Assembly: GCF_041248615.1 (NCBI RefSeq)
Contig: NZ_CP158426.1
Length of the DNA stretch: 64,000 nt
Strand: one strand, 5' to 3'
DNA from: Escherichia coli
GTDB lineage: Bacteria > Pseudomonadota > Gammaproteobacteria > Enterobacterales > Enterobacteriaceae
Shown here: one piece after another, positions 41,616 through 43,416 of the stretch
Position numbering within the stretch: position 1 is the stretch's first letter
Layout of the letters: each line of letters starts with the position of its first letter
Notes under the pieces: generated by a model
The model's database searches: none
The model's input: the letters and a program-made list of their open reading frames with translations, nothing else
Told to the model about the DNA's origin: nothing
Made by a program: the position numbers and the translations under genes

Positions 41616-42167
41616 ATGACCGCGTATTGGCTGGCCCAGGGCGTGGGTGTCATCGCCTTTCTGATCGGTATCACAACATTTTTCAATCGTGACGAACGTC
41701 GCTTCAAAAAGCAGCTTTCGGTCTATAGCGCCGTTATTGGCGTACATTTTTTTCTTCTGGGCACCTATCCCGCTGGTGCCAGTGCCATCCTTAATGCCAT
41801 TCGTACGCTGATTACTTTACGCACGCGCAGCTTATGGGTAATGGCGATTTTTATTGTGCTGACTGGCGGAATTGGCCTCGCGAAGTTCCATCATCCTGTC
41901 GAACTACTGCCGGTAATCGGCACGATTGTCAGTACCTGGGCGCTGTTCCGCTGTAAAGGGCTGACCATGCGCTGCGTAATGTGGTTTTCAACGTGTTGCT
42001 GGGTGATTCACAACTTCTGGGCGGGGTCGATAGGCGGCACGATGATTGAGGGGAGTTTTCTGCTGATGAATGGTCTGAATATCATTCGTTTCTGGCGGAT
42101 GCAGAAAAGGGGAATTGATCCGTTTAAAGTAGAGAAAACCCCTTCCGCCGTAGACGAAAGGGGTTAA
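41616..42167 (+). CDS. ygjV: Inner-membrane protein YgjV
   Basis: 183 aa hydrophobic ORF with AAGGA Shine-Dalgarno. Confidence 0.88.
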   Translation: MTAYWLAQGVGVIAFLIGITTFFNRDERRFKKQLSVYSAVIGVHFFLLGTYPAGASAILNAIRTLITLRTRSLWVMAIFIVLTGGIGLAKFHHPVELLPVIGTIVSTWALFRCKGLTMRCVMWFSTCCWVIHNFWAGSIGGTMIEGSFLLMNGLNIIRFWRMQKRGIDPFKVEKTPSAVDERG

Positions 42168-42171
42168 ACAA

Positions 42172-43416
42172 TTAATTACGCAGGGCGCTATTTGCCAGAC
42201 GATCGTCTTCTGCCTGGCAAGCTGCCGCAGTGAACAGCACGTCAGTTGAAGAGTTCAGCGCGGTTTCGCAAGAGTCCTGCAATACGCCGATGATAAAGCC
42301 GACGGCAACCACCTGCATGGCGATATCGTTCGAAATACCGAACATATTACAGGCCAGTGGGATCAGCAGCAGAGAACCCCCCGCCACGCCGGATGCGCCA
42401 CAGGCACACAGAGAAGCCACTACGCTCAACAGCAGCGCTGTGGGCAGATCGACCGGAATACCCAGCGTATTAACCGCAGCCAGCGTCAACACGGTAATGG
42501 TGATTGCTGCGCCCGCCATATTGATGGTGGCACCCAGCGGAATAGAAACGGAATAGGTATCGCGATCCAGATTCAGCTTTTCACAAAGCGCCATATTCAC
42601 CGGAATGTTCGCCGCAGAGCTGCGGGTGAAGAAGGCGTACACGCCGCTTTCGCGCAGGCACAGCAGCACCAGCGGGAACGGGTTACGACGAATTTTCCAC
42701 CACACCAGCAAGGGGTTAACCACCAGCGCCACCAGCAGCATACAGCCAACCAGCACGACCAGCAGTTGCGCGTAGCCCCACAGTGTGGAGAAACCGGTGG
42801 TTGCCAGGGTAGAAGAAACCAGACCAAAAATACCGATCGGTGCGAAGCGAATGACCAGTTTCACCATAAAGGTGACGGCATTCGACATATCGTTGACCAG
42901 GTTTTTGGTTGTCTCGTTACCGTGACGCAGTGCGAAACCGAGGCCAATTGCCCACACCAGGATCCCGATGTAGTTACCTTTCAGCAGCGCGTCGATGGGG
43001 TTGGAAACCATGCTCATTACCAGCCCGCGCATCACTTCGACAATGCCTGACGGCGGCGAAATATCACCCGCGCTACTGGACAAGTGCAGGGTAGAAGGGA
43101 AGGCAAAGCTGAAGACTACTGCGGCCAGAGCAGCAGAGAAGGTACCCAGCAGATAGAGGAACAAAATAGGGCGGATATTGGTTTTCTGCCCGTGCTGGTG
43201 GTTAGCAATAGATGCCATTACCAGCATCAACACCAGGATGGGGGCAACGGCTTTCAGTGCGCCGACGAACAAAGTACCTAACAGACCAACAGCTTCCGCC
43301 GCGGGTTTTGAGATCCATGCCAGAAGAATCCCCAGAACAAGGCCGACCAGGATTTGTTTTACCAGGCTGCCATGAGCCAGACGCCGGAATAGCCCCGGTG
43401 AACGTTGCGTAGTCAT
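42172..43416 (-). CDS. sstT: Serine/threonine:Na+ symporter
   Basis: 414 aa polytopic membrane ORF, DAACS family. Confidence 0.93.

Follow-up and report, generated by a model that had tools for sequence, protein, structure and literature searches.

Trimming of transcripts by 3' exonucleases back to stem-loops, after termination by Rho, was reportedly described by Dar and Sorek in 2018. Bidirectional terminators, in which one palindromic stem-loop stops RNA polymerase from both sides with the aid of head-on collisions, are reported to be common at convergent junctions of Escherichia coli. Among the 165 convergent "excludons" that ExcludonFinder identified in E. coli MG1655, 146 have a predicted terminator inside the neighboring gene's transcription unit (Sanmartin et al., NAR 2025; PMC12288877), and ribosomes repress terminators that lie within a translated region (Li et al., PMC4824070). 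The present analysis concerns the junction of the convergent genes ygjV and sstT in a 64,000-nucleotide stretch of E. coli DNA (contig NZ_CP158426.1 of assembly GCF_041248615.1), which is referred to as the window and to which positions refer unless K-12 coordinates are given. With a probability of about 0.85, this junction is a compact and ordinary convergent gene end, in which the last 10 codons of ygjV harbor, on the antisense strand, an intrinsic terminator of sstT.

The hairpin at the ygjV-sstT junction

The ygjV open reading frame (ORF) encodes 183 amino acids and ends with TAA at 42165-42167, whereas the sstT ORF on the opposite strand encodes 414 amino acids and ends with a TAA that appears as its reverse complement, TTA, at 42172-42174 (Table 1). 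A preliminary description of this DNA had placed the two stop codons 4 bp apart, and its coordinates and gene names proved exact. The RefSeq annotation of strain XJ6.1 gives identical gene ends and the same gap, and the K-12 MG1655 annotation (sstT, 3239944..3241188 on the plus strand; ygjV, 3241193..3241744 on the minus strand) likewise leaves 4 bp. A 2-kb query (41500-43500) matched strains ST2747 and XJ6.1 at 100% identity and most of 5,419 complete genomes at 95-99% identity. The Imp-YgjV domain of Pfam covers residues 5-163 of YgjV, leaving the last 20 residues as a non-domain tail, and the SDF domain covers residues 18-397 of SstT, a Na+/serine-threonine symporter. The spacer between the stop codons is polymorphic in Escherichia: it is ACAA in the window, K-12, and XJ6.1, whereas E. 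coli E69, E. albertii, E. whittamii, and further lineages of the genus have 3 bp, namely ACA, ATA, or GTA.

A 13-bp hairpin begins 6 nt past the sstT stop codon on the sstT-sense strand, with a predicted stability of -19.8 kcal/mol (z = -5.07) that was reached by none of 200 shuffled sequences. It was recovered by folding and, separately, by an inverted-repeat search, and it occupies codons 174-183 and the first base of the stop codon of ygjV, inside the tail that is free of the Imp-YgjV domain. The hairpin is followed by UUCUCUACUUUA; its 3' side reads GGGGUUUUCUCUACUUU on the minus strand, which places a U-rich tract directly 3' of a stable, GC-rich stem. The same bases serve both genes: the Pro-Ser-Ala codons of ygjV form one arm of the hairpin on the opposite strand, and its Lys and Glu codons (GAG AAA) form the U-tract. 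The preliminary description had stated that the gap leaves no room for terminators. This statement does not hold, since a hairpin and U-tract for sstT were found at 42165..42126 on the minus strand, inside the last ygjV codons, and are conserved with covariation. On the ygjV-sense strand, the same span folds with only -12.8 kcal/mol (z = -1.1) and is followed by UUAAACAAUUAAUUA, without a U-tract. The hairpin is weaker in this direction because G·U pairs turn into C·A mismatches. The sstT-sense 5' flank is UUGUUU, so the ygjV-sense tail begins with AAACAA (UUAAACAAUU) and contains two U in 10 nt. A consensus terminator scan of the junction did not detect the hairpin, because the loop that remains when only Watson-Crick pairs are allowed exceeds the 8-nt limit of the scan. 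No known RNA family was found at the junction in an Rfam scan, and a look-up in the TERMITe supplementary table gave no mention of it.

Published data from K-12 locate an RNA 3' end in vivo within this U-tract. The TRS study (Nat Commun 2023) reported a "Primary" 3' terminus of sstT at 3241228 (range 3241224-3241234), a second TRS dataset placed it at 3241229, and the tables give the identical hairpin at the sstT 3' end with -19.8 kcal/mol and a 3' untranslated region (UTR) of 41 nt (PMC10687069). These termini correspond to positions 42132 and 42131 of the window, which are approximately 40 nt past the sstT stop codon and 36 nt into the coding sequence of ygjV. Transcripts of sstT end at this point, in the U-tract after the GC-rich hairpin, and polymerases leaving sstT would mostly stop after about 40 nt because a conserved hairpin and U-tract terminator lies there. 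Further downstream on the same strand, the bicyclomycin analysis of Adams et al. (2021, eLife) identified a Rho termination region at K-12 3241399 (+), designated "antisense ygjV", with a Rho score of 3.23 and p = 7.5e-7 (PMC7815308). This position corresponds to approximately 41961 in the window and lies some 170 nt past the hairpin. Between the terminator and the Rho site, the sstT-sense RNA is rich in C and poor in G, contains 15-20 YC dinucleotides per 80 nt, and resembles a Rho loading site in its composition. Rho may act here as a back-up that catches read-through from sstT, and antisense transcription from sstT into ygjV would be confined to approximately 40-210 nt because of the intrinsic terminator and this back-up.

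Conservation of the hairpin and alternative roles

The junction was compared in 80 Enterobacteriaceae loci that were obtained from a YgjV scan with one genome per species, 79 of which entered the hairpin comparison. ORF ends in the relatives were taken by scanning to the first in-frame stop, and the hairpin search was limited by span around the junction. An unrestricted search for the best hairpin was dropped, as it chose other structures in several loci, including one inside the 3' codons of sstT in Escherichia. Convergent neighbors ygjV and sstT were found in approximately 70 of the 80 loci. In most genera they are separated by 13-36 bp; gaps of 3-4 bp are confined to Escherichia and one Dryocola locus, and the genes overlap (-4 bp) in Atlantibacter and two Phytobacter loci.

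A GC-rich hairpin was present at the junction in nearly all of the 79 loci, with a mean of -19.1 kcal/mol on the sstT-sense strand. Control windows inside ygjV (n = 158) had a mean of -8.65 kcal/mol (sd 3.05) and a minimum of -15.7 kcal/mol, which was beaten by 90% of the junction hairpins. The sstT-sense hairpin was more stable than its ygjV-sense counterpart in 71 loci, and the 10-nt tail contained on average 5.2 T in the sstT-sense and 2.5 T in the ygjV-sense direction, with the sstT side higher in 69 loci. In most loci, the stem starts 5-9 nt past the stop codon of sstT. The position of the ygjV stop codon relative to the hairpin varies more: it lies in the loop in 25 loci, in the stem in 37, upstream in 10, and beyond the hairpin in 7, which include all Escherichia. 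Four loci of Lelliottia, Kosakonia, and relatives (L009, L019, L021, and L023) lack sstT, and ygjV is directly convergent with an alx homologue; a junction hairpin that straddles the ygjV stop codon is kept in them.

Covariation was assessed in an ungapped alignment of 33 non-Escherichia loci, which was anchored on the ygjV stop codon and not on structure; five loci of different architecture (L030, L033, L052, L075, and L077) were excluded from the covariation alignments. Pairing was retained in 88.1% of the cells on the sstT-sense strand (47-60% in slid controls) and in 78.5% on the ygjV-sense strand (36-54% in slid controls). Changes on both sides of a pair were observed at 7 of 12 pairs in the sstT-sense and 8 of 12 in the ygjV-sense direction. 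One-sided changes that keep pairing numbered 39 cells on the sstT-sense strand and a single cell on the ygjV-sense strand, all of them giving G·U pairs on the sstT-sense strand. The sstT-sense covariation score was reached by none of 500 shuffles. The stems themselves differ widely between genera (CCCCTCCG, CCCTTCCG, CCTGCCG, CTCCCCGCC, GGCTGGCG, GGCGGGC, and ACCCGGCGGC). With a MAFFT alignment that took the sstT stop codon as its anchor, RNAalifold gave no structure; this null result is an artefact and does not count against the hairpin, because the alignment is out of structural register across genera. The hairpin is conserved with compensatory changes across Enterobacteriaceae, and its wobble pairs and U-rich tail single out the sstT-sense strand as the functional one; the G·U asymmetry identifies the transcript of sstT as the RNA under selection.

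The same comparison bears on whether the stem-loop could be a bidirectional terminator that stops polymerases arriving from both genes. It can form on both strands, most cells of the alignment are still paired in the ygjV-sense direction, and the Kosakonia loci L019 and L021, where ygjV faces alx, keep the hairpin and have TTTGGGTTTA after it on the ygjV-sense strand. Against this, the tail in the ygjV direction is poor in U both in E. coli and on average in the 79 loci, and every wobble substitution favors the sstT-sense strand. On the ygjV strand, moreover, the hairpin is either part of the translated ORF or carries the stop codon in its loop, where the ribosome should block folding (as the results in PMC4824070 would predict). 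In the searched part of the TRS tables (PMC10687069), an sstT-sense 3' end was found at the hairpin, but no ygjV 3' terminus. The hairpin looks unidirectional because its wobble pairs and its tail are asymmetric, and termination in both directions is unlikely.

Several points weigh against an intrinsic terminator of sstT at this site. The U-tract is interrupted (UUUUCUCUAC), so that the terminator is probably not maximally efficient, and the stem begins very soon after the stop codon. The curated Term-seq ends of Adams et al. (2021), from three conditions, have no entry at the hairpin (PMC7815308), which may be due to low sstT expression or to a score threshold. Neither this set nor the searched part of the TRS tables (PMC10687069) yielded 3'-end data for ygjV. 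The downstream Rho signal shows either that the sstT terminator is leaky or that a second antisense transcript exists. The compared loci are phylogenetically related, so that the counts given above are not independent events. Finally, a stable hairpin can also be the point at which 3'-exonuclease trimming stops after Rho termination downstream. Extended to both transcripts, this last point would make the stem-loop a stabilizer of 3' ends, a role consistent with the Rho region and the C-rich tract before it on the sstT-sense strand, with the imperfect U-tract, and with a stem located where model terminators perform poorly (PMC4824070). However, the mapped ends lie in the U-run, 7-8 nt beyond the base of the GC stem, which is the canonical site of release and not the foot of the stem, and the U-rich tail is conserved on the sstT-sense strand only, whereas a pure stabilizer would need none. 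Stabilization as the sole role of the hairpin is therefore quite unlikely, and an intrinsic terminator of sstT remains the preferred interpretation.

Overlap of the two transcripts and origin of the short gap

No intrinsic terminator was found by the terminator scan on the plus strand downstream of the ygjV stop codon. The junction hairpin, being weaker on this strand, without a U-tract, and inside a translated region, would not provide one for ygjV. The ygjV mRNA is detectable and PlaR-dependent (PMC6958661). Beyond the stop codon, ygjV-sense RNA is antisense to sstT and has a C/G ratio of approximately 1.0 for the first 140 nt and of 1.3-1.44 at 42308-42447. Transcripts of ygjV probably run a few hundred nucleotides antisense into sstT until they are stopped by Rho. 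Within the last 15 codons of sstT, an inverted repeat (TTGCCAG...CTGGCAA, 42184-42226) folds with -19.5 kcal/mol on the minus and -15.9 kcal/mol on the plus strand, and every Escherichia locus carries it, at -18.6 to -23.6 kcal/mol. Read in the ygjV-sense direction, it would form a hairpin 17-59 nt past the ygjV stop codon, without a U-tract, and it could be a resting point of exonuclease trimming for ygjV mRNA or a chance product of the codons.

The preliminary description had further proposed that transcription from each gene must run into the other. For sstT this stood, over approximately 40 nt and, with read-through, up to about 210 nt, as indicated by the mapped 3' end (PMC10687069) and by the appearance of sstT-ygjV among the convergent excludons of MG1655 (PMC12288877); for ygjV, for which alone no terminator was found, it is plausible. 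The excludon listing requires RNA-seq coverage that overlaps in at least 50% of 58 transcriptomes, and overlapping transcripts from both genes are found here in Table 1 of that study and in the sstT end inside ygjV. Such a listing is near-automatic at this junction, because any 3' UTR counts as overlap at a 4-bp gap. An RNA-seq regulon paper lists "sstT-ygjV" as one Cra-activated unit despite the convergence of the genes (PMC8085971); this entry probably stems from the abutting gene ends and the overlap in coverage.

A stronger version of the proposal is that neither gene has a terminator and that both polymerases travel deep into the opposite gene, so that mutual interference sets expression. 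The excludon listing, the lack of a detected ygjV terminator, and the Rho signal, which indicates that some sstT-sense RNA reaches approximately 210 nt into ygjV (PMC7815308), could be read in this way. Nevertheless, an sstT terminator is present, conserved, and coincident with a mapped 3' end, the listing carries little weight for the reason given above, no reciprocal expression data were found for sstT and ygjV, and about one-third of the sampled convergent K-12 pairs share the geometry. Expression set by mutual interference is thus very unlikely. Interference at the junction is possible, and the excludon catalogue starts from this idea. The stretch that both mRNAs would always share is short (about 36 nt), and any effect is likely weak.

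The short distance from stop codon to stem, which is 6 nt here and 5-9 nt in most of approximately 70 loci, also allows a speculative and improbable idea, namely that it has been kept to make termination dependent on translation. A ribosome finishing sstT would then occlude the 5' arm, and polymerase would read antisense into ygjV until Rho acts approximately 170 nt further on. The sstT mRNA is a known target of the small RNA (sRNA) GcvB. When poorly translated, for example under GcvB repression, it would terminate cleanly. Under this idea, ygjV would be repressed in cis only while sstT is actively translated, and the junction would be a regulated excludon with a dual-coding terminator.

The geometry of the junction is not unusual. 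Three 50-kb stretches (150 kb) of annotated K-12 contained 22 convergent pairs of coding sequences, seven of which have a gap of at most 4 bp or an overlap (Table 1). A gap of 4 bp is therefore common among convergent E. coli genes, and the spacing of ygjV and sstT is ordinary and does not exceed chance expectation.

The short gap in Escherichia can be related to the hairpin. Outside this genus, the part of YgjV that follows the conserved DPF motif typically reads K[VI]EKxVQxE[SN]PSAR, with the stop codon next; of the hairpin, the codons of (N/S)PSA(R) make up one arm, the stop codon falls in the loop or, in many loci, on the stem, and the second arm serves as an intergenic spacer of 13-21 bp in most genera. 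In Escherichia, the tail is KVEKTPSAVDERG (...TPSA-VDERG before the stop codon), the TPSA codons remain one hairpin arm, and the loop retains a TAG that is out of frame. Small indels in the loop may have removed the in-frame ygjV stop in Escherichia, after which the ORF would continue across the loop and the second arm up to the TAA just past the stem. Judged from these sequences, the 3-4 bp gap would be an Escherichia-specific by-product that arose when a C-terminal tail under little constraint was slightly extended, and not the result of terminator loss. An alternative in which the Escherichia tail is in another frame across the whole hairpin was rejected, as the 5' part (...TPSA) is in frame with ...PSAR elsewhere.

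Table 1. Features at the ygjV-sstT junction of the window, and convergent K-12 gene pairs with a gap of at most 4 bp or an overlap.
Feature	Position	Strand	Gap	Basis or remarks
Stem-loop, sstT terminator	42137..42165	-		5' arm 42165..42153 AACCCCUUUCGUC; loop 42152..42150 UAC; 3' arm 42149..42137 GGCGGAAGGGGUU
U-rich tract UUUUCUCUACUUU	42126..42138	-		Sequence; mapped K-12 sstT 3' terminus within
ygjV coding sequence	41616..42167	+		ORF list, RefSeq annotation, Pfam Imp-YgjV
ACAA spacer	42168..42171	.	4 bp	Sequence; 3 bp in other Escherichia lineages
sstT coding sequence	42172..43416	-		ORF list, RefSeq annotation, Pfam SDF
C-rich, G-poor (rut-like) tract	41950..42131	-, antisense to ygjV		C/G 2.1-2.55; Rho region at ~41961
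ygjV-sense RNA past stop, antisense to sstT 3' end	42168..42450	+		Presumed read-through zone, probably ending in Rho-dependent termination
yadE-panD			3 bp	Convergent K-12 pair
tcyP-ydjO			3 bp	Convergent K-12 pair
ycaM-ycaN			0 bp	Convergent K-12 pair
amiD-ybjS			-4 bp	Convergent K-12 pair
ybjD-ybjX			-4 bp	Convergent K-12 pair
nudG-ynjH			-35 bp	Convergent K-12 pair
cho-ves			-41 bp	Convergent K-12 pair

Neighboring features and comparison with described systems

Other features were observed on both sides of the two genes. The alx-sstT spacer is 615 bp in the window and 398 bp in K-12, and a 428-bp segment (43602-44029) stands in place of approximately 211 bp of unrelated K-12 sequence. The core of this segment (~43672-43955) is a multi-copy repeat that occupies a median of 3 places in an E. 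coli genome and at most 5, and the full segment is present at the alx-sstT site in 1,659 of 5,426 genomes. Its position agrees with that of the TRIP1d repeat, 96 bp past the alx stop codon and 255 bp before the sstT start codon (PMC10888264). Within the TRIP1d-like repeat, 43763-43928 on the minus strand gave a full-length Rfam match to TwoAYGGAY RNA (RF01731; model positions 1-168 of 168) that is sub-threshold (29.9 bits, with the gathering score at 43; E = 0.14).

An RNA 3' end that is very strong, and not Rho-dependent in the published table, was reported at K-12 3239923 (+), with scores of approximately 20,900-23,500, and a further one at K-12 3239988, within the first codons of sstT (Adams et al., 2021; PMC7815308). 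The former corresponds to position ~43437 on the minus strand of the window, with 21 nt between it and the downstream sstT ATG (43416). These ends near the sstT start suggest either an attenuator in the 5' UTR or a leader fragment that is stable. On the other side, the uxaA-ygjV spacer contains a 14-bp hairpin just past uxaA (41546-41587 on the plus strand) followed by GCTTTTCC (AAACGGCGTTTCATAATGTGAAGCGCCGTTT), which is likely the uxaCA terminator; it overlaps a promoter-like sequence (TTGTTA-16-CATAAT) directed into ygjV. The alx 5' leader is described as a yybP-ykoY (manganese/pH-responsive) element. No Rfam match was obtained for it (44998-45280) at E up to 1, to which a filter or sensitivity issue may apply. 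A strong terminator-like 3' end in the alx leader was reported at K-12 3238482 (Adams et al., 2021; PMC7815308).

The finding itself is not new: the reference annotation gives both gene ends, published tables contain the 3' end of sstT together with its hairpin, and the excludon catalogue covers the overlap. The additions are minor and comprise the covariation of the hairpin, the strand-asymmetric wobbles that name sstT as its owner, the dual-coding tail (...PSAR and ...PSAVDERG, each followed by the stop codon), and the origin of the gap. For annotation, the lesson is that a tiny convergent gap does not mean that terminators are absent, as E. coli terminators often lie inside the coding sequence of a neighbor. 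The significance beyond sound annotation practice is small.

The sstT element resembles canonical intrinsic terminators of E. coli in its GC-rich 13-bp stem, its 3-nt loop, and its U-rich 3' tract just past a stop codon, as well as in the mapped RNA 3' end within that tract. It differs from them in the close approach of the stem to the stop codon, 6 nt away, in the interruption of the U-tract, and in that the whole element doubles as coding sequence on the opposite strand. With bidirectional terminators (Ju et al., 2019, SEnd-seq; preprint 10.1101/2022.10.23.513370) it shares a single hairpin where convergent genes meet. However, the combination of an A-tract 5' and a U-tract 3' of one hairpin is not found here, since an upstream A-tract and a U-tract in the ygjV direction are both lacking, and the wobbles and tails are asymmetric. 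The C-rich tract and the Rho region approximately 170 nt past the hairpin are similar to Rho back-up systems (Peters et al., 2012; Adams et al., 2021; PMC7815308), and nothing is distinctive about them at sstT, as this is a standard role of Rho. As in the excludons (PMC12288877), a terminator lies within the unit of the neighbor, but at sstT it is inside the coding sequence and not merely in the 3' UTR, the terminator assures an overlap of only about 36 nt, and the catalogue gives no detail specific to this pair. A likeness in geometry exists with the tight convergent K-12 pairs yadE-panD, tcyP-ydjO, ycaM-ycaN, and amiD-ybjS, which equal ygjV-sstT in layout, and of which yadE-panD, amiD-ybjS, and ycaM-ycaN are on the excludon list as well.

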